This document shows positions 1,550 through 58,641 of a stretch of 64,000 bases of DNA, piece by piece (the stretch's first letter is position 1; each line of letters starts with the position of its first letter). This DNA comes from Chloroflexota bacterium (GTDB taxonomy: Bacteria; Chloroflexota; Chloroflexia; Chloroflexales; Roseiflexaceae). The position numbers and the translations under genes were made by a program. Location of the stretch: positions 1 through 64,000 of the forward strand of contig JACAEQ010000036.1 in assembly GCA_013388755.1 (NCBI GenBank), in the 5' to 3' direction. A model generated the notes under the pieces. It was not told where the DNA came from. It did no database searches and saw only the letters and a program-made list of their open reading frames with translations.

Positions 1550-1560
1550 GACTCACTCCA

Positions 1561-2532: not shown

Positions 2533-2543
2533 TGCGTTACTTT

Positions 2544-40425: not shown

Positions 40426-42491
40426 GAGGTCAGCACCTTGAGCACGGATGCCAGCGGATCGCCGACCTTCCGCAACTCATCACACATACGCTTCAGGTCG
40501 ATATCCACGCGAAAGAACCGTTCGCCTGCCTGGCGGCGGAAGCGGCGGAAGAACTGGCGCGCCCGCGCCTGATCACCGGAGTCAAGCGCAGCGGTCACCT
40601 TTTCCGCATCATTTTTCAATGCCGCGCCCCAGGCCTCGGAACTCTCCAGGTAGAGTGGCGCCACGCGCTCGTTGATATCCGGCCATGAAAGCTCCAGTTC
40701 GGTTATATCCTGGTCGATAAACTGCTCGATACGCCGCAGGTCAAGATCAATAATCTGCCAGCGATCATGTTCGTTCACCAGTTCCGTCAGGCCTGTACTG
40801 AGGGTCGCGAGCGCAGCAACACCCAGTTCGAACTGATTGATCCTGGCCGCATCGTAGCCAGCGCCGCCGAGCCACGAGCGAACGGCAGCCATTCCCTGCA
40901 CGAGCGCGGTCAGGCGCAGGGCACGCGCCGCGGCATTGAGCCGCGCATTGATCACGGTCGGCTGCGACGTCAGCACCCGGTTAAGCAACCGACTGGCCTG
41001 CTTCAGACGTTTGACGTCCAGGGCTTCAATGGCAGCCGCCAGTTCTGCCTCCGCATTACTCACATCCGCAACCCATGCCAGTTCGCTTGCCGCGAGCTTA
41101 CCGCGCTCGATCACGCGCCGGAGATCCTCCACGATCCCTTGCAGCGTTACATCATAGTTCGCCATCGCGTCCCACGTCAGGTCATCGTCGGGCAGGCGGC
41201 GCATGTCGGTGATGATCGGATTATAGCAATGGAACTGGAGTGAGTGGAGTTGATCGTGCACATCTTTGTAATCCGCAAGAATATCGATCTGCGCCGCAGC
41301 GGCCTGAAAATCGGCGCGAAAGGCGATCACCGCCTCTCGCACATCACTGCCGGCCTCGATCAGATCGCCCAGCATCTGCATGCCCGCGCCGATCGACTGT
41401 GTTGCACCAGGGGCAACAACCGGCGCCGCACGCGCTACCGGCGGCTCGAACAGGCGACCATCCTCGGCACGTGTATAGATCACCGGCACGCCCCAGTCGG
41501 CGCGACCAAGGCCGGCGACATTCATCACGGCGCGCCGCCCCTCGGTCACGCAGAAATCAATCGGGAACGCATCGGCCAGTGCGCGGTAGAATGCGCCGGC
41601 GAACGCGCGCGTTGCTTCTTCGGGTACCTGAAACTGCATGGCAACAACTGCCGGGATCTGGGCGCGCACCAGTGCCGGTGCAATACTCCGCGCCGGATCG
41701 AGCGCCAGTTGCCCGGTCGAACAGGCATCCAGCACCACCAGGCGCACATTGGCCCGATCGAGCATGATGCCGAGTTGCAGTGAACTGATCGGTTCAGGAT
41801 CGCCGATCTCGTCCTCGAACAACAATCGCCCGGTGGCGCCGTCGGCGGCAAAGCCGCCATGGCCGACGAAATGCCAGATGTGGTACCCTTCGCGCAGGCG
41901 CTCCTGCAGCACTGCAGCTGTCAGGTGCGGCTCGACGGTCACCTGGACCCGGGTGCCAAGGCGTTCGAGCGCCGCGTGGACGGCGGCCAGTTCACGTTCG
42001 ACCTCAGCAGGCGGGGGAGTCTGCGCTGCCGTGAGCAACACTCGCAACGGCAATGGCGCCGCCAGGACCGGCACGCGATCCGGTTGCGGCAAGTGGCGCA
42101 CGATCGGGGCATCAAGTAGCGCAAGCGGGCCGCGATCCGGATCATAGAGGAACTCCCAGGGCAGCGCGCCGGCAGCGGCGGCTGACGACGGGATGTTGAG
42201 CCGCAGGCGCAACCCTTCGTCAGTGCCAAGCGCGCCGCGGCTGCGCACATAGACATCGCGCACCGCGCCGGTGAAGAGCGCATCGAACAGGGCGCGACCG
42301 AGCAGCACCAGGGCTGCTTCATCAACGTCGAGCATGCGCAATCGGGCCAGTAACGCCTGTATTTGCGGATCATCATCAGGCAGGCGTAGTTCACCATCTC
42401 CTTCCTCGCCACGCGGGCCGCGCGCTTTGAGGAGAAAACGGCCATGATCGCCAGCGGTCACGGTAATTTCAAAATCAGCGTATGATTTCAT
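40422..42491 (-). CDS. CHAT-domain (caspase-like HetF/peptidase C14-fold) protein with unknown N- and C-terminal domains
   Basis: Caspase-like His (YHIWHFVGHGGF) and Cys (RLVVLDACSTGQ) dyad motifs, typical CHAT end PAVVAMQFQVPEEATRAFAGAFYRAL; ~300-aa C-terminal helical region of unknown function; start set to MKSYADF (TATACT 7 nt upstream); track ORF extends to 42548. Confidence 0.82.
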   Translation of the reverse strand: MKSYADFEITVTAGDHGRFLLKARGPRGEEGDGELRLPDDDPQIQALLARLRMLDVDEAALVLLGRALFDALFTGAVRDVYVRSRGALGTDEGLRLRLNIPSSAAAAGALPWEFLYDPDRGPLALLDAPIVRHLPQPDRVPVLAAPLPLRVLLTAAQTPPPAEVERELAAVHAALERLGTRVQVTVEPHLTAAVLQERLREGYHIWHFVGHGGFAADGATGRLLFEDEIGDPEPISSLQLGIMLDRANVRLVVLDACSTGQLALDPARSIAPALVRAQIPAVVAMQFQVPEEATRAFAGAFYRALADAFPIDFCVTEGRRAVMNVAGLGRADWGVPVIYTRAEDGRLFEPPVARAAPVVAPGATQSIGAGMQMLGDLIEAGSDVREAVIAFRADFQAAAAQIDILADYKDVHDQLHSLQFHCYNPIITDMRRLPDDDLTWDAMANYDVTLQGIVEDLRRVIERGKLAASELAWVADVSNAEAELAAAIEALDVKRLKQASRLLNRVLTSQPTVINARLNAAARALRLTALVQGMAAVRSWLGGAGYDAARINQFELGVAALATLSTGLTELVNEHDRWQIIDLDLRRIEQFIDQDITELELSWPDINERVAPLYLESSEAWGAALKNDAEKVTAALDSGDQARARQFFRRFRRQAGERFFRVDIDLKRMCDELRKVGDPLASVLKVLTS

Positions 42492-42638
42492 GGATTGGTG
42501 TAGTATAGCATAGTGCTGCGTTGCCGACGAGTATGGAGTATGGTACACTCCCGCGCGCCGATATCAACGAAGCGCGGCATGTCGCGCAATGGACGCATGC
42601 GTCAGCACCTGACAGCAACAGCAAGTGATGAGACGGCA

Positions 42639-44975
42639 ATGCAACCTGCCGCAACCCGATCGTTCGCGGTGCGCATGATTGCGGCTGCAGCGTTTGGTGC
42701 GCTACTGGCGGCATTGCTGGGCCAGATCCCTGTAACGCACCAGGTTGACATCGGTGGGAGCGATGCCGCCTATGTGCGCGGGTTCTACGACCCGGAACGC
42801 AGTGACGCTCCAGGAGCGCCGGCCTATCTCAACGGATCGGATGGCAGCGCCCGCTGGTCGCGTGCCGAGTCCTACCTCCTGTTTCCTCAGGCCGGCCTGC
42901 CCGCCGAGGTGACGATCCGTGTGCGTGGCTGGCGCGCTGGCGCTTCGCCTCCCGCCGTCACGCTCCTGGTAGAGGGCGGCGAAACACGCACCATTGCGAC
43001 GACCGGCGAATGGCAGGACCTCCAGGTTCCGGTCAGCGGCGGTCTTCTGAAACCAGAAGATGTGCTTATCATCCTCCGCACCGAGGTTGCCCCAGCCGGC
43101 AACGGCGATCCGCGGCGGGTGGGCGTTCTGATTGACCGGGCAACGTATCGTACTGCCGCGCCGCCGCTGATGCCATACCCGGCGCAACTGGCATGGGGGG
43201 CGCTGGCCGGCGCATTGCTCTGCCTGGCGCTTACCGCGTATCGCACAACGACTGCACAGGCGCCGGATGCGCCCCGACAACGCGAACATGCGCTCCTTAT
43301 CCCTCCGCCGCTGTTCGCCTGCCTTGCCGGCGCAGGACTCGTCGGCATGCTCTATCTGCTTCTGTACCGGTTCCAGCCGCCCTATCCCTACCCATTGCGC
43401 GGCTTTCTCCCTGCCGTATGTGTCACGCTCGGCGTAGCCGCCGCAGTGCGCCATGGCCCCCGGCTCGCAACGCGCCTGCCGGTGCTGCCGGATGTACTCG
43501 CACCGGGTGGCATTGTTGTGTGGACGGGTATGGTTCTGCTGGCGGCCCGCGAGCATGTCACGCTCTCCGTGCCCGGCGTCGAGAAGGATTTCCGCGTCTT
43601 CGCGACACGCGCGGTCGATCCGGCGCTCATCTTCCGTGCTGACGGATTTTACAACCTGGGCTATCCACTGCTCCTCTGGTGCGTTGCACCGCTGACCGGC
43701 GGTAACCTCTTTCTTGCCGCAACCCTTATCGCCGCCATGTCCGGCGCGCTTCTGCTTGGTGCAACCTGGGTGCTGGTACGTCAGGTGCTCGGGCGCTGGC
43801 CGGCAACCGTGGCTCTGATCGCGCTTGGTTTCAGCCCATTCGTGGTGCAATATGCGTTATACGTCGGCAGCGACATGCCCTTCGCCGCCCTGTGCATCCT
43901 GGCCCTGACGCTGCTACTTGTAAGCGACAGTCGCCGGCCCTGGCCGTACCTGCTCGCCGGCCTGGCCGCTGGCGCCGCGTTCCTTGTGCGCCATCCGGGC
44001 ATCCTGTTGCTTCCGTCTGGCGTGCTCGCGCTGCTGGCGCAACACGCAACGGCCGGCCGGGCGCGTTCATCTCTCAACGCGCTCGTTTTCTGCAGCGCAT
44101 TCTTCATTGCCATTCTTCCACAACTCTTCGTCAATCTACGCGACACCGGCAACCCGATCTACAGCCAGCAGGCCAAGAACGTCTGGCTGGCGGTCTATGG
44201 TGATGGCGATTGGGGGCGCTGGAACGAGGTGAGTAATGATGTGTCCCTGGCTCGCCTGATCGCGGACGACCCGCCACGCTTCGTTGCGGCCTGGTGGACC
44301 AACCTGCGCGGGTTCATCGGCGCCGGAGCAGAGGATACCAGCGAGTCCGGGCGGGCGATGCAATTGCGGCTGCTCGCCTTCCCGGCAAACTGGCTTGCCG
44401 TGCTGGGGATCGCCGGCTGGCTCGCGCTCATCCTGGTGCGCGGCGTGCGTGCGTCGCTGCCACCTCTCGCTCGCGCGCCCCTGATCATCCTGCTTACCTG
44501 GGTTGCACTCTATGCCGGCGCGCTCAGTGTCGGCCTGCCGTTACAACGATTCTTCCTGCCGCTTGCGCCGGTCTACGCGATTGCGGCCGCCTGGGCGCTC
44601 ACCACAGCCGTGCGTCTGCTGGCCGCAGGGCATGCCCGACAACCGGCACGCCTTCAGATCCTTGCCGTGCTGGCGCTCCTGTTCCTGATGTGGGACGGGG
44701 TCACCATCGGCGCGCGCTATGTGCTCGATCGGCAGCCTGCCGCTGAAGTCGCCGCGGTGCGCCTGGTGCAACAGGCGCTGCCACCGGGCGAACGGTTCGG
44801 TGCATCGCTCGCGCCGGGCGACCCGGTCGGCAAGTATTCCGCCATCGCTCACCGCGTCGCATCTGCGGGGGAACCAGCGCGCTACCTGCTCCATAGTACA
44901 GACGCCGGCTCACCGCCTGCAGGAGCAGTCATCGCGACATCCGGCACATACGTACTGCTGCAGGTCGGGCCATGA
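42639..44975 (+). CDS. GT-C fold membrane glycosyltransferase (ArnT/PMT, GT39/GT83-like) with N-terminal extracytoplasmic domain
   Basis: N-terminal TM + ~200-aa soluble domain, then >=10 TM helices; paralogous to the downstream GT39-like gene; start uncertain (42639 or 42675). Confidence 0.6.
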   Translation: MQPAATRSFAVRMIAAAAFGALLAALLGQIPVTHQVDIGGSDAAYVRGFYDPERSDAPGAPAYLNGSDGSARWSRAESYLLFPQAGLPAEVTIRVRGWRAGASPPAVTLLVEGGETRTIATTGEWQDLQVPVSGGLLKPEDVLIILRTEVAPAGNGDPRRVGVLIDRATYRTAAPPLMPYPAQLAWGALAGALLCLALTAYRTTTAQAPDAPRQREHALLIPPPLFACLAGAGLVGMLYLLLYRFQPPYPYPLRGFLPAVCVTLGVAAAVRHGPRLATRLPVLPDVLAPGGIVVWTGMVLLAAREHVTLSVPGVEKDFRVFATRAVDPALIFRADGFYNLGYPLLLWCVAPLTGGNLFLAATLIAAMSGALLLGATWVLVRQVLGRWPATVALIALGFSPFVVQYALYVGSDMPFAALCILALTLLLVSDSRRPWPYLLAGLAAGAAFLVRHPGILLLPSGVLALLAQHATAGRARSSLNALVFCSAFFIAILPQLFVNLRDTGNPIYSQQAKNVWLAVYGDGDWGRWNEVSNDVSLARLIADDPPRFVAAWWTNLRGFIGAGAEDTSESGRAMQLRLLAFPANWLAVLGIAGWLALILVRGVRASLPPLARAPLIILLTWVALYAGALSVGLPLQRFFLPLAPVYAIAAAWALTTAVRLLAAGHARQPARLQILAVLALLFLMWDGVTIGARYVLDRQPAAEVAAVRLVQQALPPGERFGASLAPGDPVGKYSAIAHRVASAGEPARYLLHSTDAGSPPAGAVIATSGTYVLLQVGP

Positions 44976-47224
44976 AACGCGCAGAGAGTCTGCCGCGGCA
45001 GAGCGATCTGCACGCGCAAACTGCAACGCGCCTGCCAGAGGATGACATCGGTACGCGCGCCCATCACCGCTTCGCCATACTGGCCGCCGTCAACTGGCCA
45101 CTGGTGCTGCTCGTGCTGGCGACCGTTGCACTACGGATCTGGTTCATCAGCGTCAGCCCACTCGACCCGCGCTATTCGAATGCTGATGATGGCGACTATT
45201 ATCGCCGGGCATTACGCCTGGCCGTTACCGGCGCCTACATTGACGACGCCTGGTTGATCCGGCCACCGCTGCACGTCTGGTTCTTTGCTGCGTGGCTGCG
45301 CCTGGCGCTGGTGCTCGGCATACCGCAGGCCGGCCTGTTGTTTGTTCAACTGGCACAGGTAGCGCTGGCGGCGCTGACCACCCTGGCCGGATACGATCTG
45401 GCGCGCCGGCTGTTCCATACCCGACGCGCCGGCCTGCTCTTTGCCGGCTTCCTGGCGCTCTGGCATCCACTGGTTGAGCAAACCAGCGTGCTCTTCAGCG
45501 AGCACCTCTATCTGTTTCTCTTCTTGCTGCACCTCTGGCTCCTGCTGCGCTATGACCAGCATGCACAACTCCGCGATCTGGCGCTGGCCGGCGTGGCGCT
45601 CGGCGCCGCGGCGCTGACCCGCTCGCCGGCATTGTATGCTGTGGTCTTTGTCGCCGGCTGGCTGGTCGTGCGAGCATTCAGCAACCACGCATCACCGATG
45701 CCGGCACGCGCAGCCACGGAATGCAGCCACACACAGGATGCTCGCCGTCCCACGACGGCCGGCCTGCTCAGAGCCACCGTGATCGTCGTGGCCTCGTGCC
45801 TGGCGGTGGTGGGACCCTGGACGGCGCGCAACTATGCGACCTACGGGCATCTGATCCCGGTTGACACCCTCGGGCAGATTAACCTGTGGCTCGACCTGGA
45901 CGCGGTGGAACGGCGCAACGCAAACATTGAGACACTGCGCCGCATGCCACAGGCAGAACGCCACATGTACGCGCTGGCGCGCGCGCGCGAGATCTTCACC
46001 GCCGACCCCTGGCGTCCGTTCCGGCCAATGTGGGCCACGTTTCGCCATATCTGTAAGGCGCAATTCATCGAGGATTACTTCGTCAAGCAAAGTTTCTTCA
46101 CCCGCCCGCTACGTGAGACGGCGCCGCTCGGCCTGCCGGGTGACATCATCTGGCTGGCGTTTACGGTTGCCGGTATCGCCGGGCTGGCAGGGCGCGTGCG
46201 CGAAGGATGGCATCACCGGCTGTTCTTTCTGGCCTGGATCGCGTACTCACTGGTGACCGTCCTCATTTTTCACGTTGAACCACGTTACCTTCTGCCGCTC
46301 TGGACGCTACTGGCGCTCTACGGCGCCGGTACGCTGGCACAGTTTCGACGCACCGCACACATCCATCCACAGCGATGGGTCACATCACGGCTCACAGCGC
46401 AAATAGTGCTGATCGCCCTCTTCTTCTGGCTTGTCTTCACCTACCGCGACTATCCGGCGATCATCACGAGCGGCGTGGCGCGCGAGCGCGCCATGGTCGC
46501 CGGCATTGCAGCCTACCGGGCCGGTGATTACGGTGCTGCGGAACGCTGGTATCGCGCGGCGCTCGCGGCACAACCCGGATTCGTAGATGCTCAGGTGCAC
46601 CTGGCGCTGGCGCTGGCGGCACAGGAGCGCCAGACTGAGGCAATCGCGACGATCCAGCGCAACAGCTCGCGCCATGCCGAACTGGTCGCCGGCGCATTGC
46701 TGCGCGACACGGGCGACCAGGCAGGGGCCGCGCGCATTCTGACCGATATTGAGGCCATCGCCGGCGAAGACATTCAACGCTGGGCGATCGAATGGTTGCG
46801 CCCGCCTCCCGTGAATGCCATACGCCTTGGTGACGGGCTCGACATGGGGTATGTCATGGGCTTCTCGCCGCCGGAGGATGGCGCGCAGGGCAGTTTCCGC
46901 TGGCTCGAAGGGCGCGGTGCCATCACACTTCCGCTTGCAACGCCGCTACGCTCCGGTGCAACCATCACACTCTCGATGGCCGGCGGGCCGGCAATGGCAG
47001 TCACACCGTTGACCGTGCGAATCGGCGGCGGGCCGGCATGGACCATCCCGGTGGCGCGGGGACAATGGCGGAGTTATTTCATCATCGTACCACCGCAACT
47101 CGCCGGTGCACAGCGCGTAACGATCGAGCTCAGCGCACCAACCTTCGTGCCCGCGTTACTCGACCCCGCCAGTGATGATGCCCGCGCCCTGAGCCTGATG
47201 ATCGCCAGCGTTCGGGTACGGTAG
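44972..47224 (+). CDS. Glycosyltransferase family 39-like (ArnT/PMT-type, polyprenyl-phosphate-sugar dependent) with C-terminal TPR and beta domain
   Basis: Loop-1 acidic motif [11 protein letters not shown], many TM helices, C-terminal TPR-like segment ([36 protein letters not shown]); ATGA overlap with upstream gene. Confidence 0.72.
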
Positions 47225-47321
47225 GCGCGCAGCACATGGAGAACGCAGAACATGGTACAATCCTGCCGGAGCAGATCGCGCATGGGGCAGCGGGGAATTG
47301 TACCGCGTTATGAAGGGTCAT

Positions 47322-47933
47322 ATGTCGCAACCCGTCATTCTGGCAACCGACCTCGAAGGCGTCCTCGTTCCGGAAATCTGGATCGCCGTGGCGGAACGCT
47401 CCGGCATCGAACAGTTGCGTCTGACAACACGCGACGTTCCTGATTATGATGAATTGATGCGCGGGCGTATGGCACTTCTGCGCGCACACGGCCTGACACT
47501 GGCAGATATCCAGCGCGTCATCGGGACGATTGACCCGTTGCCGGGAGCAGCTGAGGCGCTGGCGCGCCTGCGCGAAGTGACGCAGGTGATCATTCTATCG
47601 GATACATTTTACGAGTTTGCCATGCCACTCATGGCAAAGCTCGGCTGGCCGACGCTCTTCTGCCATACACTTGAGGTCGACGGCGACGGTATGATCGCCG
47701 GTTATCGCCTGCGCCTGCCGGACAGTAAAACCGCCGCCGTGCACGCACTGCGCGACATCCGGTTCCGCGTCCTGGCCGTCGGCGACTCCTACAACGATAC
47801 CGGCATGCTGGCAGCAGCCGACGCAGGCGCGCTGTTCGAGCCGCCGCCGAATGTGATCGCCGATTTCCCGCAGTTCCCCGTGCTGCGCAGTTACGACGAT
47901 CTGCTGGCATTTGTTGAACGCGAACGGCAATAA
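47322..47933 (+). CDS. HAD-superfamily phosphatase, ThrH-like (phosphoserine phosphatase / homoserine phosphotransferase family)
   Basis: [39 protein letters not shown]...[27 protein letters not shown]...[12 protein letters not shown] closely follows the ThrH pattern recalled from Pseudomonas. Confidence 0.75.
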
Positions 47934-47940
47934 GAGCCTG

Positions 47941-48072
47941 TCCAAATAACGGGTTGGATGGCATTGCGCGCGAAGCGACGCAAGCGGAGATTGCTTCAGC
48001 CACGCATCGCTCGCTGCAGGTTGTCGCTCGCGCTCTGCGCAATGACATAAGGCGTCGCGTTGTTCGGATAGG
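47941..48072. repeat. Family-B repeat (copy B4)
   Basis: CCAAATAACGGGTTGGATGGCATTGCGCGCGAAGCGACGCAAGCGGAGATTGC...GCGCTCTGCGCAATGACATAAGGCGTCGCGTTGTTCGGATAGG. Confidence 0.75.
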
Positions 48073-48087
48073 CACGAAACAGCTTCC

Positions 48088-49023
48088 ATGGCTATCGAAA
48101 CATACGTCAGACCCGAAGTTGCACCAGACGCCGAGACGTCGCTACACTGGCCGTTTCGCGTCAGTGTCGTCATTCCAGCCTATAACGAAGGGCCGCGGGT
48201 CGCGGGCGTCATCCGGGAGGTGCGCGTCCGGCTCCCGGATGCCGAGATCATTGTTGTTGACGACGCGTCATCGGATGATACCGCCGCACAGGCGGCGGCA
48301 GCCGGCGCAATCGTCATCAGCCGGCCGCACAATATCGGCAACGGCGCCGGCGTGCGTACCGGTGTACGCGCCGCAACCGGCGACGTCGTCATCGTGATTG
48401 ATGCCGACGGCCAGCATAACCCCGCCGACATTCCACGTCTGCTGGCCCACCTCGACCGGTATGACATGGTGATCGCCACCCGCCCGGATCGCGAAAGCCA
48501 CGAGAATCTGTTGCGCTGGTTCGGCAATACGGTTCTCAATGCGCTTGGCAGCTATTTATCCGGCTTTGCGATGAAGGATCTGACGTCGGGGTTCCGCGCC
48601 ATGCGCCGCGATGCCATCCTCGAATTTGCGCATCTACTGCCGAACCAGTTCGGCTGGCCGATGACCAGCGCAATGGCCTTCGCAAAAGCTGGCTACCATA
48701 TCAAGTTCGAACCGGTAACCATGCAAAAGCGCCAGGGAGGCCGCAGCACCCAGAAGTTGTTCAAAAACGGCGTGCGCAACATCCTCATCATGCTGCGCAT
48801 GGTCTCGATGTTCGCGCCGTTACGCGTCTATTTTCCAGTGGCGCTGGCCATGTTCGCCCTCAGCCTGGCATCGTTCGCCATCAGCTATTTCGTCACCGAT
48901 CCAGGGCGCTTCCGCGTGCCCAACTCGGCGGTTGGCCTGTTCGTCGGTGCGATCGTCGTGTTCATGTTCGGCTTGCTGGCGGAACAGATCGCCGGCCTGC
49001 GTTTTCAGCGGCGCGACCAGTGA
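48088..49023 (+). CDS. GT2 polyprenyl-phosphate glycosyltransferase (DPM1/ArnC/GtrB-like) with C-terminal TM helices
   Basis: VSVVIPAYNEGPRV, VVDDASSDDT (DxD context), two C-terminal TM helices. Confidence 0.82.
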   Translation: MAIETYVRPEVAPDAETSLHWPFRVSVVIPAYNEGPRVAGVIREVRVRLPDAEIIVVDDASSDDTAAQAAAAGAIVISRPHNIGNGAGVRTGVRAATGDVVIVIDADGQHNPADIPRLLAHLDRYDMVIATRPDRESHENLLRWFGNTVLNALGSYLSGFAMKDLTSGFRAMRRDAILEFAHLLPNQFGWPMTSAMAFAKAGYHIKFEPVTMQKRQGGRSTQKLFKNGVRNILIMLRMVSMFAPLRVYFPVALAMFALSLASFAISYFVTDPGRFRVPNSAVGLFVGAIVVFMFGLLAEQIAGLRFQRRDQ

Positions 49024-50036
49024 AACGCACCTCTCGCTGGCTGTTGCGCCTGATCGGCCCCATGCTGCTGATCTTCTTCCTGTGGCGCAGCGATCTGCGC
49101 GCGCTCGGCGCTGCGTTGATCGGGATCGACGTGTGGCCGGCGCTCCTGTCGCTTGCCCTGATGCCGGTCTTTGTGTGGGTCAAATCGTGGCGCTGGGGCC
49201 TGATTATCCGCGAGCAGGGGCACACGACGCCACCGCTGCCGTACATGGCCGCGCTCTACGCCATCGGTCTCTATGCCGGTGGCATTACGCCGGGGCAGTC
49301 GGGCGACTTCATTAAAGCATGGTACCTGCGCGAACGCGGCGTGCCCCTGGCGCCCGGCTTGCTCAGTATTGTGCTCGACCGCCTGTTTGATTTTATCATC
49401 TGGGCGGTGCTTGCCGTGCTCAGCCTGGCGGCCTTCATTGATGTGTTTCCGGCGGACATGCGCAGCGCCGTACAACTGGCGACGGTGGGCTTTGCGCTGG
49501 CGGTAATGGTCGCCGCGCCGGGATTGATGGCGCGCGTGCCGCGCGAGTGGGTCATGGCGCGTGTGATCCCGCTGCTGCGGGGAAGGCTCCGCGAGGCGCT
49601 TGAACGGCTGCGCGCACAACTTGCGCCACTCAGCCTCCGCCTCACACCCCTGTTGCTGCTCCTGCTCGGCACCATTGGATCGGCAACGTCCACCTTTGTG
49701 CGTATCTATCTTCTGTACCTGGCACTTCGGCTGGGCGACATTCCAGTGCTCGAGGTTCTGGCCGCTACGGGTCTGATCGCTATCCTCCAGGCGTTACCCA
49801 TCAGTTTCGCCGGTGTCGGTGTCCGTGATGCTGTGCTGATCGCCATGCTGCAACGCCATGGCCACGCACCGGAGATCGCGCTCGGGCTCTCGGCGTTGTT
49901 TCTGCTGATCAATATCGAACATATTCTGGTCGGTTTCCTGGTTTCGTTGCGCTACCCGCTCGGTACAGCGCAGGCCGGCGCCTCAATCGATGCGGCGGAA
50001 CATGAACCTGCTTCCGGGCACATGCAGGGGCAGTAG
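49020..50036 (+). CDS. Lysylphosphatidylglycerol-synthase-TM-region-like (UPF0104) membrane protein, flippase-like
   Basis: 8 TM helices, LLRLIGPMLLIFFLWRSDLRAL... ; ATGA overlap with GT2. Confidence 0.65.
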   Translation: MKRTSRWLLRLIGPMLLIFFLWRSDLRALGAALIGIDVWPALLSLALMPVFVWVKSWRWGLIIREQGHTTPPLPYMAALYAIGLYAGGITPGQSGDFIKAWYLRERGVPLAPGLLSIVLDRLFDFIIWAVLAVLSLAAFIDVFPADMRSAVQLATVGFALAVMVAAPGLMARVPREWVMARVIPLLRGRLREALERLRAQLAPLSLRLTPLLLLLLGTIGSATSTFVRIYLLYLALRLGDIPVLEVLAATGLIAILQALPISFAGVGVRDAVLIAMLQRHGHAPEIALGLSALFLLINIEHILVGFLVSLRYPLGTAQAGASIDAAEHEPASGHMQGQ

Positions 50037-51649: not shown

Positions 51650-51838
51650 GTCTAGAACCAATACCTTTCACATACGCCCGTCACCCCCACCCCGGCCCTC
51701 CCCCGCCGGGGGAGGGAGTCCGACTCTTCCCCCTGGCGGGGGGAGGTCGGGTGGAGGGATCTGTTCCACCAAAGGTGAACGTGTTCTTTGAGTCCGACTC
51801 CTCCCCCCAGCGGGGGGAGGTCGGGTGTGTCTAGAACT
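51650..51838. mobile_element. Family-A MITE-like repeat (copy A3, two hairpin modules), CTAGAAC at both ends
   Basis: tgtCTAGAACCAATACCTTTCACATACGCCCGTCACCCCCACCCCGGCCCTCCCCCGCCGGGGGAGGGAGTCCGACTC is the reverse complement of the A2 right arm; second module CCTCCCCCCAGCGGGGGGAGG; ends ...gtgtCTAGAAC. Confidence 0.7.
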
Positions 51839-51896
51839 GTTCACACGTCTCCTGGGAGCACAGGTGTCCAGGTGCGTTTACGAAGATTCAGACGCC

Positions 51897-52195
51897 ACCT
51901 GTCAGTGCGCGGAGCGTCAGCGACCGCCTGTCAGTGCGCGGAGCGTTAGCGACCGCTTGCAGCGAGCGAAGCGTGGCTGAAGCAATCTCGGCGGAGACGG
52001 GAGATTGCTTCGCTGCGCGCGCAATGACCTGAAAGATGGGAGCTTGCGTCGCTGCGCGCGCAATGACCTGAAAGATGGGAGCTTGCGTCGCTGCGCGCGC
52101 ACTGACAGCCAGATGCCGCCCGTCAGTGCGTGGAGCGTTAGCGACCGCTTGCAGCGAGCGAAGCGTGGCTGACGCAATCTCCTCGCTGCGCGCGT
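51897..52195. repeat. Family-B repeat array (copy B5) with internal tandem duplications
   Basis: CTGTCAGTGCGCGGAGCGT(C/T)AGCGACCGC x2; 36-39-nt unit GCGCGCGCAATGACCTGAAAGATGGGAGCTTGCGTCGCT x2; ...GCGTGGAGCGTTAGCGACCGCTTGCAGCGAGCGAAGCGTGGCTGA... x2. Confidence 0.7.
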
Positions 52196-52313
52196 GGTTT
52201 CGCCGGCAGAGCTGGCGAAAACCACCACCCAGGAAGCGACGTACCGCTCTGCCGAAGGCAAGAGGAACCATGACGCGAATCGCCCGTCACGACGATCGCG
52301 CAACGCGCCTCAT

Positions 52314-52577
52314 TCAGGCAAGGCGCGCCGAAATGTACCGCACGATATCATTGAGCGTCGCCAGCTGGCCGTAATCTGCCTCGGGGATGGCCACCCCCAG
52401 CTCAGCATCGAGCGCAATCATGAAGTTGAGATAATCGAACGAGTCAATATCCAGCGCCTCGCGCACATTCACATCCGGCGACAGCGATTCAAGATCGGCC
52501 TCCGGCGCTATCTGCTTCAGGCAGGCGAAGATCACCTCTTTGATCTGCGCTGCGCTTAACGTCTGCACAGGTGTCAT
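52314..52577 (-). CDS. Acyl carrier protein (phosphopantetheine-binding, 87 aa)
   Basis: [21 protein letters not shown] (DSx attachment-Ser motif in a 4-helix ACP context); ATGA overlap with upstream E2 gene. Confidence 0.75.
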
Positions 52578-53779
52578 AGCTTGTCAGCCTCCTGCAGATG
52601 GCGGGTGAGCGCTTCGAGGAACTGGGCGCCCCGCCGCCCATCGGTCGCACGATGATCCGCCGCAAGCGTGGCCGTCAGCACCGGCCGGATGCCGAGCATA
52701 CCCCCTTCGGCCCAGGGCTGTTCGGTAACCTTGCCGAAGCCGATCAGCGCCACCTGTGGCGGGTAAATCACGCCGTACACCTTCTCGACCCCCAGGTCGC
52801 CAAGGTTTGTCACCGTGACGGTGCCGTCGGTCAGATCCGAACTACGCAGGCGACCGCTGCGCACCCTGGTGATCAGGTCGCGCAACGCCTCCATGAGTTC
52901 ATCCAGGCTCTTGAGATCGGCGTGATGAATGGCCGGCGTTACCAGGCCGCCCTGCCGCAATGCCACGGCAAAGCCGATATTGATCGCCTCCTGGGGCTGG
53001 TGACAATCATCGATCCAGTAGCCATTCAACTCCGGCACATCACCCAGCGCACGCGCTACCGCCTTGATCAGCAGCACCGCCGGCAACAGTCGATCGCGCA
53101 CCGAACGTTTCTGGTTCTCGGCTTCGAGCCAGCGTAACGGCCGGCTCATGTCAATACGCGTCTCCAGGTAGTAGTGCGGAATGTCGCGATTCGATCGCGC
53201 CATGGCTGCGGCAATTGCCCGCCGCATGGCCGCCTGCGCGTCGCCTCCCGCCGGGCGTTCCGGTTCACGGGCCGGCGTAACCGGCGCCGACGGAGGTGGC
53301 GCCACGGCTGCCTTTCTGGCTGCCGCCGCTTCGACATCAGCGCGTTCGATCGCGCCGTGCGGGCCACTCCCCTGCACACTGCTCAGGTCAACCCCCAGTT
53401 CGGCGGCCAGCCGCCGCGCGACCGGCGACACCCGGACGCGCTCACGTTCCGCCGCGGGCGCGGGTGGCGCCGAGGGCGCAGGCGGCGCACCCGCTGCAGT
53501 CATCACCGGCACAGGCGCAGGCGGAGGAGGCGCCGGTGGCGCGCCATTGTGACGGAGCAGCGCCAGTACCGTACCGACTGGTACCTTCTGTGACGGTTGA
53601 ACAATAAGCTGTTCGATCACGCCGTCTTCGAAAATCTCGACCTCAATGATCCCCTTGTCGGTCTCGACTTCGGCGACGACCATGCCACGCGTGACATGGT
53701 CACCGGGTTTGACCTTCCATGCAACCAGCGTTCCGGCAGCCATGTCGGCGCCCAGACTCGGCATACGAAACTCAGACAT
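52574..53779 (-). CDS. 2-oxo acid dehydrogenase E2 component (dihydrolipoamide acyltransferase), operon 2
   Basis: Lipoyl domain ([24 protein letters not shown]), Ala/Pro linker, PSBD ([23 protein letters not shown]), catalytic ...ADHRATDG; start ATGTCTGA overlaps the E1beta stop. Confidence 0.85.
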
Positions 53780-54773
53780 GGGCATGCACCATCCTCTGGA
53801 CCGTCGCGACGATTGTCTCCGCCTGTGGCAACGCTGCCTGCTCAAGGTGCCGTGCATAGGGCATCGGCACTTCCACGCTGCAGATCCGCTCGACCGGGGC
53901 GTCCAGCTCATAGAAGGCGCGTTCCATGATGCGCGCGCTTACCTCCGCCGAGATCCCTACGCTCCGCCAGCCTTCGTCAACGATCACGGCACGGTGCGTC
54001 TTCGCGACCGATGCCAGGAACGTCTCGTCATCGAGTGGGCGCAGTGTGCGCAGGTCAACGACGTCGGCCTCGATCCCATCGCGTGCCAGGGTCTCCGCCG
54101 CCTCCAGCGCCTTGAAGAGGCAGGCGCCATAGGTAATGATTGACACATCGGCGCCGGAGCGACGTACACGCGCGCGGTCAATATCTACCGGCCCGGCGCT
54201 GGCGGGCAACTCGCCCGCCATGTTGTACAGGCTGGCATGCTCGAAGATCAGCACCGGATCAGGATCCTCAAGCGCCGTCCAGAGCATACCGCGGGCGTCT
54301 TCGAGCGTGGCCGGCGTAATCACCTTGATCCCGGGAATATGGGCGAACCAGCCTTCAAGGCTGTGCGAGTGCTGCGCCGCCACCTGCCGGCCAGCGCCGG
54401 TCGCCATGCGAATGACGAGTGGAACGTTGAACAGGCCACCTGACATATGCAGGATCGTCGCAGCATTGTTCAGGATCTGGTCACCCGCCAGCAGGCTGAA
54501 GTTGACGGTCATGACTTCGACGATCGGGCGCATGCCATTCATGGCGGCACCAATGCCGGCGCCGACAAATGCCGACTCCGACAGCGGCGTATCGCGCACG
54601 CGCTCCGGGCCGAACTCTTGCAGCAACCCCTTGCTGACCGCGAAGCAACCACCGTATCGGCCAACATCCTCACCCATCAGGAAGACGCGTTCGTCCTTGC
54701 GCATGGCTTCACGCATGGCTTCACGCACCGCCTCCCGGTATGTCATCGGCACCATCTGTCCATTTCCGCTCAT
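53772..54773 (-). CDS. 2-oxo acid dehydrogenase E1 beta subunit, operon 2
   Basis: [14 protein letters not shown], transketolase-like C-terminal domain. Confidence 0.88.
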
Positions 54774-55777
54774 GGCGACCTCCGCTCCGAGTAGACGAAG
54801 CGCTCAAGATCTTCAACCGGTTCCCAGGTGCCTGCTTCGGCAAAGGCAACCGCCGCCTCGATCTCGTCGGCAACCTTGCGCTCAAGCTCCGCCAGGTCCG
54901 TTTCGCTGAGCAGGCCCTCGTCCATTAGCAGATGAATGAACAGCCTGATCGGATCACGTTGCTTCCACTGTTCGACCTCGTCTTTCGTCCGGTACAGCTC
55001 GGTATCAAATGCCGAGTGGCCACGAAACCGGTAGGTGCGGCACTCGAGAAAATAAGGCCCTGCGCCGGAACGAACGGCGGCGACAGCCGTCCGGGCCGCC
55101 GCTTCGACCGCCAGCACGTCCTGACCATCCACCGCCGCAGCCGGCACATCATAGCTGGCAGCCTTGCGGGTCAGGTCCGTCACCGACTGGTGGCGCTCGA
55201 GGGCGGTACCCATGGCATACAGGTTGTTCTCGCACAGAAACAATACCGGCAGGCGCCAGAGCGCCGCCAGGTTCATCGACTCGTGGAACTCCCCCTCAGC
55301 AACCGCTCCATCGCCGAAGAAACAGCAGGTAATACGCTCCTGGCCGCGCATCTTGTCCGCCAGGGCAAACCCGATCGCCAGCGGCAGACAGCCGCCGACA
55401 ATCGCATTCCCGCCATAAAAGCGTGTCGCGGCATCGAACAGGTGCATTGAACCACCGCGCCCACGGGCGCACCCCTCCTGCTTACCATACATTTCGGCCA
55501 TGATTGCCCCGGCGGAGATGCCGCGTGCGAGCGCATGGCCGTGCTCGCGATAGGTTGCGACGATATTGTCGTCGGGTGTCAGCGCTTCCATCACACCGAC
55601 TGCAACGGCTTCTTCGCCATCGTAGAGATGCAAGAAGCCGCGGATCTTCATTGCTCCGTACAGCTCGGCCGCTCTGGCTTCGAACCGCCGGATCCGCAGC
55701 ATCTGATGCAGCAGGTGCAACGCGTGCTCACGCTCGACCGGCGTTGTTACGGTCGTGTTCATCGGTGCTGCATTCAT
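54770..55777 (-). CDS. 2-oxo acid dehydrogenase E1 alpha subunit (TPP-binding), operon 2
   Basis: [50 protein letters not shown] (TPP motif); ATGA overlaps on both sides. Confidence 0.88.
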
Positions 55778-57534
55778 CTGGTTTCCTCCAGCGTCGACAG
55801 GTCACCTTCAGGCAGGCCAAGCTCGCGCGCCTTGAGCAACCGCCGCATGATCTTGCCACTGCGCGTGTGCGGCAGATGCTCCTCAAACTCAATTTCCTTG
55901 GGTGCCACGGCGGATCCGAGCCTGGTGCGGCCAAAGCCGAGCAACTCCATCCGTAGCTTCTCACCCGGTTCAAACCCTGGTTTGAGCGTCACGAACGCCT
56001 TCACCAGTTCACCAATGATCGGGTCGGGCTTGCCGATGACACCAACCTCGGCAACCGCCGGGTGTTCCATCATCGCGCTCTCGACCTCAAACGGGCCAAC
56101 CATGTGACCGGCGGTCTTGATAATATCGTCGGCGCGGCCAACGAACCAGAAATATCCGTCCTCGTCGCGCATCGCCAGGTCGCCGGTGATGTACCAGCCA
56201 TCAACGAAGCATGAGCGATAGCGCTCCTCGTCGTGCAGGTAACCACGGAACATGGAGGGCCAGCCCGGCTTGAGCGCCAGATCGCCCTCGACATTCGGTG
56301 CCGTCACCACCTGAGCGCCGGTGCCATCGATCCGCCGGACGATCGCCGCCTCGATCCCGGGGAGTGGCCGGCCCATTGAACCAGGCCGGATATCCATTGC
56401 GGCATAGTTGGCAATCATGATCCCGCCCGTTTCGGTTTGCCACCAGTTGTCGTGTATTGGTAAACCGAGCGCCTCCTGGCCCCAGACGACGCCTTCAGGG
56501 TTCAGCGGTTCACCGACGCTATGCACAAGGCGCAGGCTGCTCAGATCGTACTGCTTGCGCGGTTCGATCTCCAGCCGCATCAGCCGCCGGATGGCCGTCG
56601 GCGCCGTGTACCAGACGGTCACCTTCTGCGACTCCAGGATGCGATACCAGCGATCGGCGTCGAAATCCGCCTCGTCAACAATGTTGGTTACGCCATGGGT
56701 CAGCGGTGCAATGATGCCATACGACGTACCGGTAACCCAGCCAGGATCGGCGGTGCACCAGAAGATATCGTCCGGATGCAGATCAAGCACATATTTCGCC
56801 GTGGCATAGTGCATCAGCACGGCGTTATGCACATGGATCGCGCCTTTGGGCATGCCGGTGGTGCCGCTGGTGAAGTGCAACAGCGCCATATCCTCCGGGT
56901 CAGTCGGTGGGATAATGAATACTTCGGAGGCGGCCTCCATCAATCGCGGCAGCGACAGCAGGCCATCGTCAGCGTCGTCCGGCGCGTCGGTCAGCAGGAC
57001 GTAGCGCAACTGCGGTAGTCGCTCACGCAGGTGCGCGACCTTCTGCGTATAGAGGCGCTTTGTGGTCACCAGGATACCGGCGTCACCCCGCATCAAGCGC
57101 TGCGCGACTGGTTCAGGGCCGAAGGCGGAAAACAGCGGTGCAAACACGCTGCGGTTCTTCAGGGTACCCAGCGCGGCAATGTAGAGTTCCGGAATGCGCC
57201 CCGCGAGGGCAAACACCCGGTCACCGGCGCCCACCCCCAGCCACCGCAACACATTGGCAAACCGGTTGCTCAACGCCTTCAGATCGCCATACGTGAAATC
57301 GCGCACCAGGCCCTCTCTGCCGAGCCAGCGGATGGCCAGATGATCGCGCCGCGCACCATCTGCATGGCGATCGACCGCTTCGTAGGCGATATTCAGGCCC
57401 TTGCCGCCAGGAAGACCCGATAACTCACGGCGGATCGATTCCCACGAGAATGTGGCGCATGCCTCGGCATAGTCCAGGAGATGCGGCGGAACGACCTGGT
57501 CCTCGCGCGATTTTCTGATCGGTTCCCAGTTCAT
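55774..57534 (-). CDS. AMP-forming acyl-CoA synthetase / acyl-AMP ligase (acetyl-CoA-synthetase family)
   Basis: [12 protein letters not shown] (AMP-binding motif), ...YGQTE-like and C-terminal [11 protein letters not shown] motifs; start set to MNWEPI preceded by AAGGGGGAG. Confidence 0.82.
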
Positions 57535-57558
57535 CGCTCCCCCTTTCATGCTCCGCAA

Positions 57559-57582
57559 GGCCAGGACACCATTGTCCTGGCC
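57559..57582. promoter_or_regulatory. Perfect 10-bp palindrome GGCCAGGACA-N4-TGTCCTGGCC just upstream of the ligase-E1-E2-ACP operon start
   Basis: Read directly; lies 25-48 nt upstream of the ligase start codon (minus strand). Confidence 0.35.
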
Positions 57583-57615
57583 TGATCGTTGCATGCTTTC
57601 AAACTAGCATGAATT

Positions 57616-57642
57616 AGCCGGCTGTTGAGAAAACAGCCGGCT
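57616..57642 (-). terminator. Hairpin AGCCGGCTGTT-GAGAA-AACAGCCGGCT ~60 nt downstream of the amidinotransferase-family gene
   Basis: 11-bp perfect stem; no clear U-tract. Confidence 0.35.
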
Positions 57643-57702
57643 ACGGAGGGTGATATCTTGATGACCGGGAGTATCCAGACTGGAATACGCCCTGCCAGTA
57701 GT

Positions 57703-58641
57703 CTAGCGTTCGAGGGGGCATGTCATACAGTGCGGGCCGCCATTGCCTTTGCGCAATTCGTTCCCCGGTACACCAACGGCCTTGCCGCCGCGCCGTTCGA
57801 CTTCGTTCATCACGCGTTCGGCCCATTCATATCCTACAATCCGCCGCGGTGCCGTCATCACGAAGTTCGCCGCCGCCCAGCCGTCGCGTTCATCATCAAT
57901 TTCGATGATGTCAACATCCTCATCATGCAGAAAATCCAGCACCATCTGTTCGCGGATTGCCCCGGTTTCCAGATCCTTGATAGTCGCCGGCGCGTAATCA
58001 AGCAGCGGCGGCGCAGCCAGCGCCAGATCCTGGTCGATCAGCACAAGGATTCCGTCAATATGAACGGTACCGGGGTAACACGGAATGGTAACCATGCGTT
58101 TCAGACCGGCCGCTCGCGCGCAGGCTTCCATTTTCTCCAGGCCGGCCTGATTCGTGCGATCGCAACGCCCGACAATGACCGTATCGCCTCGAAAATAGGT
58201 GACACCACCGCCTTCGAGCAGGCCATCGGGTTCGAGCCGGTCGAGGACAGGGATGCCGAGTTTTTCGCAGACGCGCCCGATAATTGCCGGATCACCCCTG
58301 CGCCCATCAATCGCCATACCGAGTAACACCGCGCCCGCCGGCGTCATCACGGCCAGATCGCGCGTGTAGGTCATATTTGCGCGGCGGCTGATATACGCCA
58401 GCGCCTCAGGATCATCCTTGAGCACGTCGTTCACCAGCACAACCTCGGTGCCCATCTGCTGGAACGCCGCCACGAGGGTGTCAAACTCCACAAGGAACCC
58501 ATCAATATCCGGCACGGCCGCAAAGTTGAAGTAGCCCAGCGTCGCGTCATTGAGCATGGTCAACTCGGTTTCCGGGCGATGCATCAGCACTTTCTTGAGT
58601 GGGTAATGTTCGTAGGCGATCCGGCTGGTATCGATCATCAA
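57703..58641 (-). CDS. Amidinotransferase-superfamily protein (arginine deiminase / DDAH-like)
   Basis: 312 aa; C-terminal GGPHCMTCPL (nucleophilic Cys context of the guanidino-group modifying enzyme fold). Confidence 0.6.
   Translation of the reverse strand: MMIDTSRIAYEHYPLKKVLMHRPETELTMLNDATLGYFNFAAVPDIDGFLVEFDTLVAAFQQMGTEVVLVNDVLKDDPEALAYISRRANMTYTRDLAVMTPAGAVLLGMAIDGRRGDPAIIGRVCEKLGIPVLDRLEPDGLLEGGGVTYFRGDTVIVGRCDRTNQAGLEKMEACARAAGLKRMVTIPCYPGTVHIDGILVLIDQDLALAAPPLLDYAPATIKDLETGAIREQMVLDFLHDEDVDIIEIDDERDGWAAANFVMTAPRRIVGYEWAERVMNEVERRGGKAVGVPGNELRKGNGGPHCMTCPLER

Follow-up and report, generated by a model that had tools for sequence, protein, structure and literature searches.

In a 64,000-nucleotide stretch of DNA (hereafter the window) from a Chloroflexota bacterium of the family Roseiflexaceae (contig JACAEQ010000036.1), five consecutive genes on the minus strand (52314–57534) encode a putative AMP-forming acetate ligase, the E1 alpha, E1 beta, and E2 subunits of a 2-oxoacid dehydrogenase complex, and a stand-alone acyl carrier protein (ACP). 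The five genes are best explained as a self-contained, horizontally mobile "acetyl-thioester module". From sequence and from analogy to known systems, we tentatively favor the reading that the ACP stands in for coenzyme A (CoA) and accepts the acetyl group that E2, the ligase, or both produce, a reading that falls somewhat short of being probable. The features of the operon are the following:

55774–57534, minus strand: AcsA-type AMP-forming acetate ligase, 586 amino acids (PF00501 and PF13193; NF003313)
54770–55777, minus strand: E1 alpha, thiamine pyrophosphate (TPP)-binding, pyruvate dehydrogenase (PDH) clade, 335 amino acids (PF00676; TIGR03182)
53772–54773, minus strand: E1 beta, 333 amino acids (PF02779 and PF02780; NF006667)
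52574–53785, minus strand: E2 dihydrolipoamide acyltransferase, 403 amino acids with the ATG at 53785 or 401 amino acids with the ATG at 53779 (PF00364, PF02817, PF00198)
52314–52577, minus strand: stand-alone ACP, 87 amino acids, its start overlapping the E2 stop in ATGA (PF00550)
57535–57702, minus strand: 5' leader and promoter region of the operon, directly read

The corresponding Pfam architectures are AMP-binding plus AMP-binding_C for the ligase, E1_dh for E1 alpha, Transket_pyr plus Transketolase_C for E1 beta, Biotin_lipoyl plus E3_binding plus 2-oxoacid_dh for E2, and PP-binding for the ACP. As read, the open reading frames (ORFs) extend over 55774–57594, 54770–55777, 53772–54773, 52574–53911, and 52314–52577. 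Stop and start codons overlap at all junctions, with ATGA at 55774–55777, 54770–54773, and 52574–52577, and with ATGTCTGA at 53772–53779 between E1 beta and E2. A preliminary description of this DNA had already proposed a five-gene operon with overlapping junctions, and all of its ORFs and junction letters proved to be identical to those found here. Identical proteins in public gene calls have 586, 335, 333, 403, and 87 residues, in the order from ligase to ACP. Because the identical public E2 (P0081) is called with 403 residues, E2 probably starts with the ATG at 53785, which has AGAGGA 6 nt upstream, and its overlap with E1 beta would therefore be 14 nt and not 8 nt. The two genes overlap as described earlier, and the start assigned to 53779 should probably give way to the ATG 6 nt upstream. 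The ligase ORF is open to 57594, but the ATG at 57534 carries a Shine-Dalgarno sequence (AAAGGGGGAG) and fits the public call of 586 residues; a GGAGG-type Shine-Dalgarno sequence lies ahead of every start in the operon. As the gap to the upstream neighbor, a gene for an arginine deiminase (ADI)/amidinotransferase-like protein (57703–58641) at a distance of 168 nt, contains a hairpin, and as the ACP gene is followed by a repeat-rich spacer and then by a convergent aldo-keto reductase gene, we regard the operon as consisting of the five genes only.

The gene order is conserved far beyond this genome. A profile scan with the ACP, which covered one genome per species of the GTDB, detected relatives in 396 species genomes, and gene order was judged in the 80 best loci of these genomes. 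Wherever the upstream DNA sufficed, the order ligase–E1 alpha–E1 beta–E2–ACP was kept, with two exceptions: the Anaerolineae metagenome-assembled genome (MAG) locus L034 (JAEUQZ010000017.1, 6235–8249) has the ligase gene and an intact ACP gene with a 10-nt overlap and no E1 or E2 gene within 16 kb, which is the sole such case, and locus L023 has a truncated E2 gene and the ACP gene. A protein search with the ACP yielded 80 relatives with 46–74% identity, and all contexts inspected showed the cassette in the same order, with unrelated flanks. The cassette spans at least ten phyla, including Chloroflexota, Acidobacteriota, Verrucomicrobiota, Desulfobacterota, Planctomycetota, Cyanobacteria, Nitrospirota, Proteobacteria, and Actinomycetota. 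The 80 best loci include Planctomycetota/Kuenenia, Nostocaceae, Pleurocapsa, Nitrospirota, and Burkholderiales; the cassette also occurs in Desulfuromusa, Desulfosarcina, and Geobacter, and relatives of the ACP are found in Entotheonellia/Tectomicrobia. The examination of other Chloroflexota and Actinobacteria that had been recommended in the preliminary description therefore gave the same order with a range far wider than these groups, and its account of the gene content and of a non-canonical arrangement was accurate.

Median identities to the window proteins are 74% for the ligase, 68% for E1 alpha, 76% for E1 beta, 65% for E2, and 52% for the ACP. The median junction distances in the cassette loci are −5, −4, and −8 nt. 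In 57 of 75 loci, the start codon of the ACP gene overlaps the stop codon of the E2 gene. In view of the same order in many phyla and the conserved junction distances, the five-gene arrangement is not due to chance. Nor is the ACP gene an unrelated neighbor, a possibility that had been considered earlier, as it directly follows the cassette E2 gene in almost all loci. More distant ligases (66% and 54% identity) likewise have E1 genes next to them. The second E1 alpha–E1 beta–E2 operon noted before is indeed present in the window, at 215 to about 3605. Since the cassette E1 alpha shares only 52% identity with this in-genome paralog, as compared to 59–78% with cassette orthologs in other phyla, the cassette copy represents a separate orthologous group that is common to the phyla; the cassette E1 beta is 68–85% identical to its orthologs across phyla. 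The housekeeping PDH-type operon itself (215–3869; E1 alpha, E1 beta, and E2) has no adjoining gene for dihydrolipoamide dehydrogenase (E3), and its E1 alpha ORF has an N-terminal extension of about 100 residues that is probably untranslated.

The cassette is also found on mobile DNA. When PLSDB was searched by tblastn with the ACP, 25 records of plasmids or megaplasmids from cultured bacteria were retrieved, and all eight annotated plasmid regions that were opened contained the cassette; three of these plasmids, from cultured Desulfotalea, Burkholderia, and Sinorhizobium, are typed as conjugative. The hosts are Desulfotalea psychrophila LSv54, Burkholderia savannae, Rhodococcus sp. DK17, Cupriavidus sp. 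USMAHM13, Methylocystis rosea, Ralstonia wenshanensis, Sinorhizobium fredii CCBAU 45436, and Leisingera methylohalidivorans, and the genes are labeled there by PGAP as acsA, pdhA, E1 beta, E2, and "acyl carrier protein" or "phosphopantetheine-binding protein". The three conjugative plasmids and the cross-phylum identity argue for a horizontal spread of the cassette. Some E1 and E2 gene structures are unusual: E1 alpha and E1 beta are fused to a 665-residue protein on the Leisingera plasmid (L102:6845–8842), and in L004 (7731–9302) and L005 the gene calls join E1 beta to the lipoyl domain of E2, with the rest of E2 being split. These cases may reflect frameshifts or decay. In the searchable full-text literature, we found no description of the cassette as a whole, while each of its parts belongs to a known family.

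The ACP scored 31.9 with the PP-binding model PF00550 (cut-off 20.8). It remained under the cut-offs of all 14 NCBIfam ACP models, with 31.7 versus 70.45 for the housekeeping AcpP model TIGR00517, and the scores required by the PRK00982 models were not reached either. These low scores with housekeeping ACP models therefore point to a separate ACP family. Its signature consists of IAPE..., D-[IL]-D-S-[FMY]-D, and IPExDY, and Ser46 is invariant. An AlphaFold2 model based on an alignment of 27 sequences (pLDDT 86) shows helices at residues 9–23, 46–60, 66–71, and 75–86, with Ser46 opening helix II, and a Foldseek search with this model had ACPs of the fatty acid synthesis (FAS) type and mitochondrial ACPs on top, with TM scores of 0.68–0.84. 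Sequence and model thus indicate that the protein is a genuine AcpP-like carrier with a phosphopantetheine serine. The lack of such a serine or of the fold had been named as a possible refutation of the ACP assignment, which is now strengthened by the invariant Ser46 and the predicted four-helix fold. Judged from the homologs, the ACP family is confined to the cassette of ligase, E1, and E2 genes.

The ligase scored 936.8 bits with the model NF003313 "acetate--CoA ligase" (equivalog cut-off 729) and 572 bits with the solved AcsA chain PDB 9g79_B "Acetyl-coenzyme A synthetase", and its top families were all acetate/propionate–CoA ligases; the score with the MbcS model was 358 bits and thus below the cut-off of 850. 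It aligns over the full length and collinearly with the Bacillus subtilis-type AcsA (9g79/9g7f) and with Salmonella Acs (1pg3/2p2f). The residues Val310, Thr311, Val386, and Trp414 of the Salmonella enterica enzyme (2p2f) correspond to V267, T268, V340, and W365 of the ligase, which are invariant in 58 of 58 cassette ligases; these four residues reportedly were defined as the acetate pocket by Ingram-Smith and coworkers in 2006. Trp414 restricts Acs to small acids (PMC10455477). We therefore rejected an identity as a fatty acyl-AMP ligase (FAAL), as acetate/propionate–CoA ligase families came out on top and the pocket-closing Trp is present, and the FAAL-style loading of the ACP that had been envisaged before finds no support, in view of the scores with NF003313 and 9g79_B and of this invariant Trp. 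By all these features, the ligase is predicted to activate acetate, or at most propionate, and not to be a FAAL.

The catalytic K561 and R536 are likewise invariant in the 58 cassette ligases. R536 is the equivalent of Arg584 in the S. enterica enzyme, a residue in contact with the 3'-phosphate of CoA (PMC10455477). The position of Arg526, a residue that stabilizes the thioester-forming conformation of Acs (PMC10455477), is taken by Met478, which is invariant in cassette ligases. In the Acs of M. thermautotrophicus, exchanges of the equivalent Arg528 for Lys or Gln decreased kcat at least 130-fold (PMC10455477). Arg191 of the S. enterica enzyme falls into a gapped region of the alignment and is also different in B. 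subtilis AcsA. We considered the Arg526-to-Met exchange as a signature of ACP loading and rejected it, as Arg occupies this position in 33, Leu in 29, and Met in 4 of about 75 full-length sequences that represent the wider family, and one of the Met ligases is encoded by a stand-alone gene. Ligase relatives of the Leu type (54–66% identity) also have E1 genes next downstream. Because Leu and Met are common in the wider clade, the Met marks the clade and not the acceptor. Among the homologs, P0204 (949 residues) is an AcsA homolog with an intein-like insertion of about 380 residues inside the conserved YWC|TADPGW motif.

E1 alpha reached 296 bits with PF00676 and 453.5 with the PDH-specific equivalog TIGR03182 (PDH_E1_alph_y; cut-off 393.85), and the TPP motif GDG...NN is visible in its translation. 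The nearest solved E1 alpha is that of human PDH (284 bits), as compared to 150 bits or less for branched-chain 2-oxoacid dehydrogenase and 115 bits for Bacillus PDH. E1 beta scored 420.9 with NF006667 (cut-off 321). Considering the clade membership and the acetate specificity of the linked ligase, pyruvate is most probably the substrate of E1. E2 has a lipoyl domain, a peripheral-subunit-binding (E3/E1-binding) domain, and a catalytic domain, and 65 cassette E2s all share the lipoyl Lys and the catalytic DHRxxDG motif. It remained under every NCBIfam equivalog cut-off, the best being TIGR01349 with 264.7 versus 445, which is weak evidence, since the housekeeping E2 of the window fails as well (354 versus 445). 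As the lipoylatable Lys, the E3/E1-binding domain, and the acyltransferase center are intact, the complex is expected to oxidatively decarboxylate a 2-oxoacid to S-acetyl-dihydrolipoyl-E2.

No further partner is linked to the cassette. Pfam scans of the 116 nearest and 150 further flanking ORFs from about 100 loci revealed no gene for a ketosynthase (KS), an acyltransferase (AT), a nonribosomal peptide synthetase (NRPS), a phosphopantetheinyl transferase (PPTase), or E3; none of these genes is present in the 64-kb window either, and polyketide synthase (PKS) genes are likewise absent from the loci and from the window. All-against-all clustering of the flanking ORFs gave no sixth co-conserved gene, and a Pfam scan of ten small ORFs just after the ACP gene gave no conserved partner. 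The PPTase and the downstream KS or acyltransferase that the preliminary description had suggested to look for were thus found neither in the window nor in the cassette flanks. Because neither E3 nor a PPTase is encoded nearby and E2 keeps its E3-binding domain, the module must rely on the E3 and the PPTase of the host. On the large conjugative plasmid of Desulfotalea psychrophila (L095:9342–10352), a lipoate–protein ligase gene directly follows the ACP gene, and with this gene the module would be self-sufficient for E2 lipoylation in that host.

In the mechanism that we tentatively favor, the ligase would convert acetate and ATP to acetyl-AMP, as suggested by its AcsA architecture and the acetate-sized pocket, and E1 alpha/beta and E2, together with the host E3, would turn pyruvate (most probably) into S-acetyl-dihydrolipoyl-E2. 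Holo-ACP would then take the acetyl group in place of CoA, yielding acetyl-S-ACP through the action of E2, the ligase, or both. The ACP family occurs only in the cassette and moves with it, and the partners of the ACP are therefore likely to be the co-traveling ligase, E1, and E2; as both of these enzyme systems end with the transfer of acetyl to a phosphopantetheine thiol, holo-ACP could take the place of CoA. A direct link between ligase and ACP is favored by the L034 locus, which keeps only these two components, and a link between E2 and ACP is favored by the conserved overlap of the E2 stop with the ACP start. Since there is no linked consumer gene and the module is transferred horizontally, the acetyl group would either circulate in a closed shuttle, in which pyruvate gives acetyl-ACP and then acetate with the ligase running in reverse and forming ATP from AMP and PPi, or be donated to a universal host enzyme, such as a priming or condensing enzyme of FAS. 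The reverse operation of an AMP-forming Acs is known from Syntrophus. The earlier suggestion that the complex delivers an acyl unit to the ACP rather than to CoA is kept as the best reading, and its versions with a FAAL or with a polyketide or lipid starter are not supported. Several natural-product pathways have been proposed to involve a direct priming of carrier proteins by E1/E2 enzymes that resemble 2-oxoacid dehydrogenases (PMC5384830, PMC7570522).

Among known systems, those that pass a C2 unit from E1/E2 to an ACP in the clusters for tetrahydroisoquinoline antibiotics come closest to how the cassette would work, although it lacks their defining context. In these systems, namely NapB/NapD/NapC of naphthyridinomycin and DinS/DinU/DinT of dnacin, TPP- and lipoyl-dependent E1/E2-like proteins ("two-component transketolase") are combined with a discrete ACP. 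The Qnc proteins of quinocarcin, a name that reportedly goes back to Peng and coworkers in 2012, are said to belong to the same group. As in the cassette, E1-like, lipoyl/E2-like, and discrete ACP genes are encoded together. The C2 unit of the TPP-dependent E1-type enzyme is proposed to go to the phosphopantetheine arm of the neighbor-encoded ACP and not to CoA (PMC7570522, PMC5384830), as may be the case in the cassette. Unlike the cassette, the Nap and Din systems transfer a hydroxyethyl/glycolyl unit that originates from ketose phosphates by a transketolase-type E1. Their genes belong to NRPS clusters that also encode a KASIII-like loader and condensation (C) domains, and they are restricted to the secondary metabolism of actinomycetes; the cassette, in contrast, has an E1 of the PDH clade, an acetate ligase as partner, no assembly line, and a distribution over at least ten phyla. 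The pepteridine locus of Photorhabdus (plu2796–2798) also comprises PDH-like E1/E2 proteins, which have been proposed to load a carrier arm "in place of CoA", with E3 not being encoded in the cluster. There, an acylated pterin is formed and the carrier is a thiolation (T) domain within an NRPS-like protein, and the transfer itself is a proposal.

With canonical PDH of the mitochondrial/alphaproteobacterial type, including the housekeeping complex of the window, the cassette shares the E1 families (TIGR03182, NF006667), the E2 domain order, and the catalytic motifs, but it forms its own orthologous group, its E2 scores lower with all equivalogs (265 versus 354 bits with TIGR01349), and it has AcsA and the ACP as fixed partners. 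B. subtilis-type AcsA and Salmonella Acs have the same acetate pocket, catalytic Lys, and Arg584 equivalent, and differ in the residue at the Arg526 position and in that the cassette gene is translationally coupled to E1 alpha. A dedicated ACP that bears an acetyl thioester in a catabolic complex is known from citrate lyase, whose ligase CitC makes acetyl-S-ACP from acetate and ATP with the carrier CitD. However, CitC does not belong to the ANL superfamily, CitD carries phosphoribosyl-dephospho-CoA, there is no homology to the cassette, and no 2-oxoacid dehydrogenase is involved. In Staphylococcus aureus, the Bkd complex and MbcS represent a 2-oxoacid dehydrogenase and an AMP-forming short-chain ligase that converge on one short acyl thioester (PMC10026030); this system differs in that the products are acyl-CoAs for FabH, the genes are unlinked, and a dedicated ACP is not part of it.

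An unlikely but serious alternative is that the enzymes are ordinary acetyl-CoA enzymes and that the FAS carrier has, in this ACP, an isoform specific to stress, which serves FAS, lipid, or storage-lipid enzymes of the host without any direct transfer from E2 or the ligase. This would agree with a ligase that passes the acetate–CoA ligase equivalog and keeps the Arg for the CoA 3'-phosphate, with FAS and mitochondrial ACPs as the closest solved relatives of the ACP, and with occasional lipid genes nearby (WS/DGAT in two loci and a 1-acyl-glycerol-3-phosphate acyltransferase in S. fredii), and universal FAS partners would account for function after horizontal transfer. However, the ACP is far under every housekeeping ACP model, including TIGR00517, and has an invariant surface motif of its own (IPExDY), FAS genes were never co-located in the Pfam scans of the flanks, and neither the L034 locus with only ligase and ACP nor the conserved translational coupling of E2 and ACP would be expected from such an isoform. 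All readings other than this one and an acetyl-accepting ACP together make up a roughly estimated small share of the probability. One of them, in itself improbable, regards the acetyl group as a starter unit, loaded FAAL-style or by E2, for a dedicated polyketide or specialized-lipid pathway that is encoded elsewhere. E1/E2-like enzymes indeed prime carriers in the naphthyridinomycin/dnacin, pepteridine, and related clusters, the transfer being a proposal (PMC5384830, PMC7570522), and relatives occur in the metabolite-rich Entotheonellia/Tectomicrobia, but the ligase is of the AcsA type with an acetate pocket and is no FAAL, genes for a KS, an AT, a C domain, or a PPTase adjoin the cassette in none of about 100 loci and are missing from the window, and the cassette resides on conjugative plasmids and in stress islands rather than in biosynthetic gene clusters. 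The starter-unit proposal of the preliminary description has therefore not been maintained.

About as improbable is a role of the ACP as a lipoylation helper, which would carry octanoyl for a transfer of the LipB/LipM type to the lipoyl domain of the cassette E2, in analogy to the role of mitochondrial ACP for the PDH of mitochondria. E1 alpha and E2 belong to the mitochondrial/alphaproteobacterial type, the ACP has mitochondrial ACPs among its best matches, and the lipoate–protein ligase gene of Desulfotalea would fit as well, but an adjoining lipoylation gene was found in that locus only, the ligase pocket suits acetate and not octanoate or lipoate, and the host AcpP would serve this purpose equally well, with the conserved ligase and the L034 locus being left unexplained. 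A system for the dehydrogenation of acetoin, or of another acyloin or 2-oxoacid, in which AcsA recycles the acetate derived from acetaldehyde, is very improbable. The E1 alpha/beta and E2 systems of strict anaerobes are classically acetoin dehydrogenases (Aco of Pelobacter and Clostridium), and the cassette is found in Desulfuromusa, Desulfosarcina, Geobacter, and Kuenenia. Nevertheless, E1 alpha is above the trusted cut-off of TIGR03182 (454 versus 394), as is the housekeeping copy of the window, and the flanks contain no E3 gene and no linked acoR, acoX, acoL, or other aco accessory gene or aldehyde dehydrogenase gene; an acetoin dehydrogenase was rejected on these grounds, and it would leave the ACP unexplained.

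The genes that flank the cassette vary, and genes related to stress or low oxygen recur among them, encoding universal stress proteins (USP), Hsp20, BON and CBS proteins, Crp/Fnr regulators, and DevS/DevR-like pairs. USP-like ORFs were found in 19 of 79 MAG loci, often on the same strand directly after the ACP gene (about 21 of about 450 flanking genes), and they represent 12 of the 116 nearest-neighbor ORFs. Locus L004 is flanked by genes for Hsp20, a hibernation factor, and BON and CBS proteins, and the S. fredii cassette by genes for DnaJ/CbpM, BON, DUF2267, FtsH, USP, NAPRTase, and Hsp20. In Leisingera, the flanks encode PfkB, PpsA, USP, Hsp20, CBS, and a Crp/Fnr regulator, and in Ralstonia a class II ribonucleotide reductase, AckA, a Pta-like protein, and FdhF. 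The flanks on the Rhodococcus plasmid pDK1 encode PfkB, USP, a GAF histidine kinase with a response regulator, and otsB, a set that we presume to resemble the mycobacterial DosR regulon. An exact TTGA-N6-TCAA box with half-sites of the FNR/FixK type is present upstream of acsA in three of eight proteobacterial loci, namely on the Burkholderia, Cupriavidus, and Sinorhizobium plasmids (L096, L098, and L101; −64 to −186 from acsA), as compared to a background of 0.008 per 265 nt. Leisingera has such a box with one mismatch and an adjoining Crp/Fnr gene. As these boxes are confined to some of the proteobacterial loci, they do not constitute a conserved operator. The neighbor genes together with the FNR-type boxes suggest that the cassette is expressed under low oxygen or energy stress. 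Membership in the low-oxygen locus lxa of Burkholderia cenocepacia was considered and rejected, as its paper names no PDH, ACP, or Acs genes; such genes are also not mentioned in the paper on H111 under micro-oxia.

In the leader of the window operon, a hairpin (AGCCGGCTGTT-N5-AACAGCCGGCT; 57616–57642) likely represents the end of the transcript of the upstream ADI-like gene. A palindrome CATGCT-N8-AGCATG is located at 57592–57611, and a second one, GGCCAGGAC-N6-GTCCTGGCC (GGAC-N6-GTCC) at 57559–57582, resembles half-sites of the NarL/DosR type. The latter is not conserved, as only one other locus among 72 has it upstream of the ligase gene, and DosR-type GGGAC-N4-GTCCC motifs were not found upstream of the cassette loci. 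The consensus scan found no sigma-70 consensus promoter, and no Rfam family matched in the window, which leaves no sign of a riboswitch. A terminator scan gave a single terminator-like site, which is intragenic, and shuffled sequence yielded more such sites.

Several points weigh against the ACP as the physiological acetyl acceptor. The ligase passes a curated acetate–CoA ligase equivalog and keeps R536 for the CoA 3'-phosphate, features that fit a continued use of CoA, and its sole cassette-wide deviation, the Arg526-to-Met exchange, is not specific to ACP-linked enzymes. E2 retains the standard catalytic domain, no protein among 350 retrieved homologs had the ACP fused to E2 or the ligase, and there is no PPTase gene nearby, neither in the window nor in the flanks of the other loci. 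The association with stress genes is recurrent, not universal, and the flanks of the window cassette have none. Sequence by itself does not single out ACP over CoA as the acceptor.

Some further features of the window were observed around and apart from the cassette. The spacer downstream of the ACP gene (51650–52300) contains three tandem units of 39 nt (51995–52111), an 83-nt direct repeat (51907–51989 and 52099–52181; 87% identical), and two GC-rich palindromic units of 38 nt (51716–51753 and 51790–51827); these are probably intergenic repeats that resemble repetitive extragenic palindromic (REP) elements, and the long "ORFs" at 51888–52303 are probably spurious. The upstream neighbor (57703–58641, minus strand) encodes a 312-residue protein of the arginine deiminase/amidinotransferase fold with a TTG start, which is far under the arcA/DDAH cut-offs (92 versus 414 bits) and outside the conserved cassette. 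At 36967–42548 on the minus strand, a gene for a 1152-residue nSTAND1 NTPase with WD40 repeats overlaps the gene directly ahead of it, which encodes a 708-residue CHAT-domain (caspase-like) protein, a pairing that is typical of STAND/protease conflict or signaling systems. A cell-envelope glycosylation cluster at 42513–50036 comprises two large glycosyltransferases of the PMT_2 family, one of which has TPR repeats, together with a HAD hydrolase, a GT2 glycosyltransferase, and a membrane protein of the LPG_synthase_TM family.

In its most far-reaching form, which we consider speculative and rather unlikely to hold as a whole, our reading implies a PDH of primary metabolism with holo-ACP as its physiological acceptor that, together with an AcsA-type ligase, would connect pyruvate, acetyl thioester, and acetate by a carrier-tethered route that does not depend on CoA, possibly yielding ATP from AMP and PPi by the reversed ligase, and that has spread between phyla on plasmids as a toolkit for low oxygen or dormancy. 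If true, central carbon metabolism would have acetyl-ACP as one of its nodes, against the textbook view that 2-oxoacid dehydrogenase complexes depend on CoA, and E2-to-carrier transfer would have a physiological role beyond antibiotic pathways. It would also explain why organisms that already have a PDH keep a second one, as is the case in this genome. The hypothesis is open to genetics and simple enzymology, since cultured Rhodococcus, Cupriavidus, Burkholderia, Ralstonia, Sinorhizobium, Methylocystis, and Desulfotalea contain the cassette, and the recurrent company of USP, Hsp20, BON, CBS, and Crp/Fnr genes makes the cassette a candidate part of bacterial hypoxia and persistence responses.

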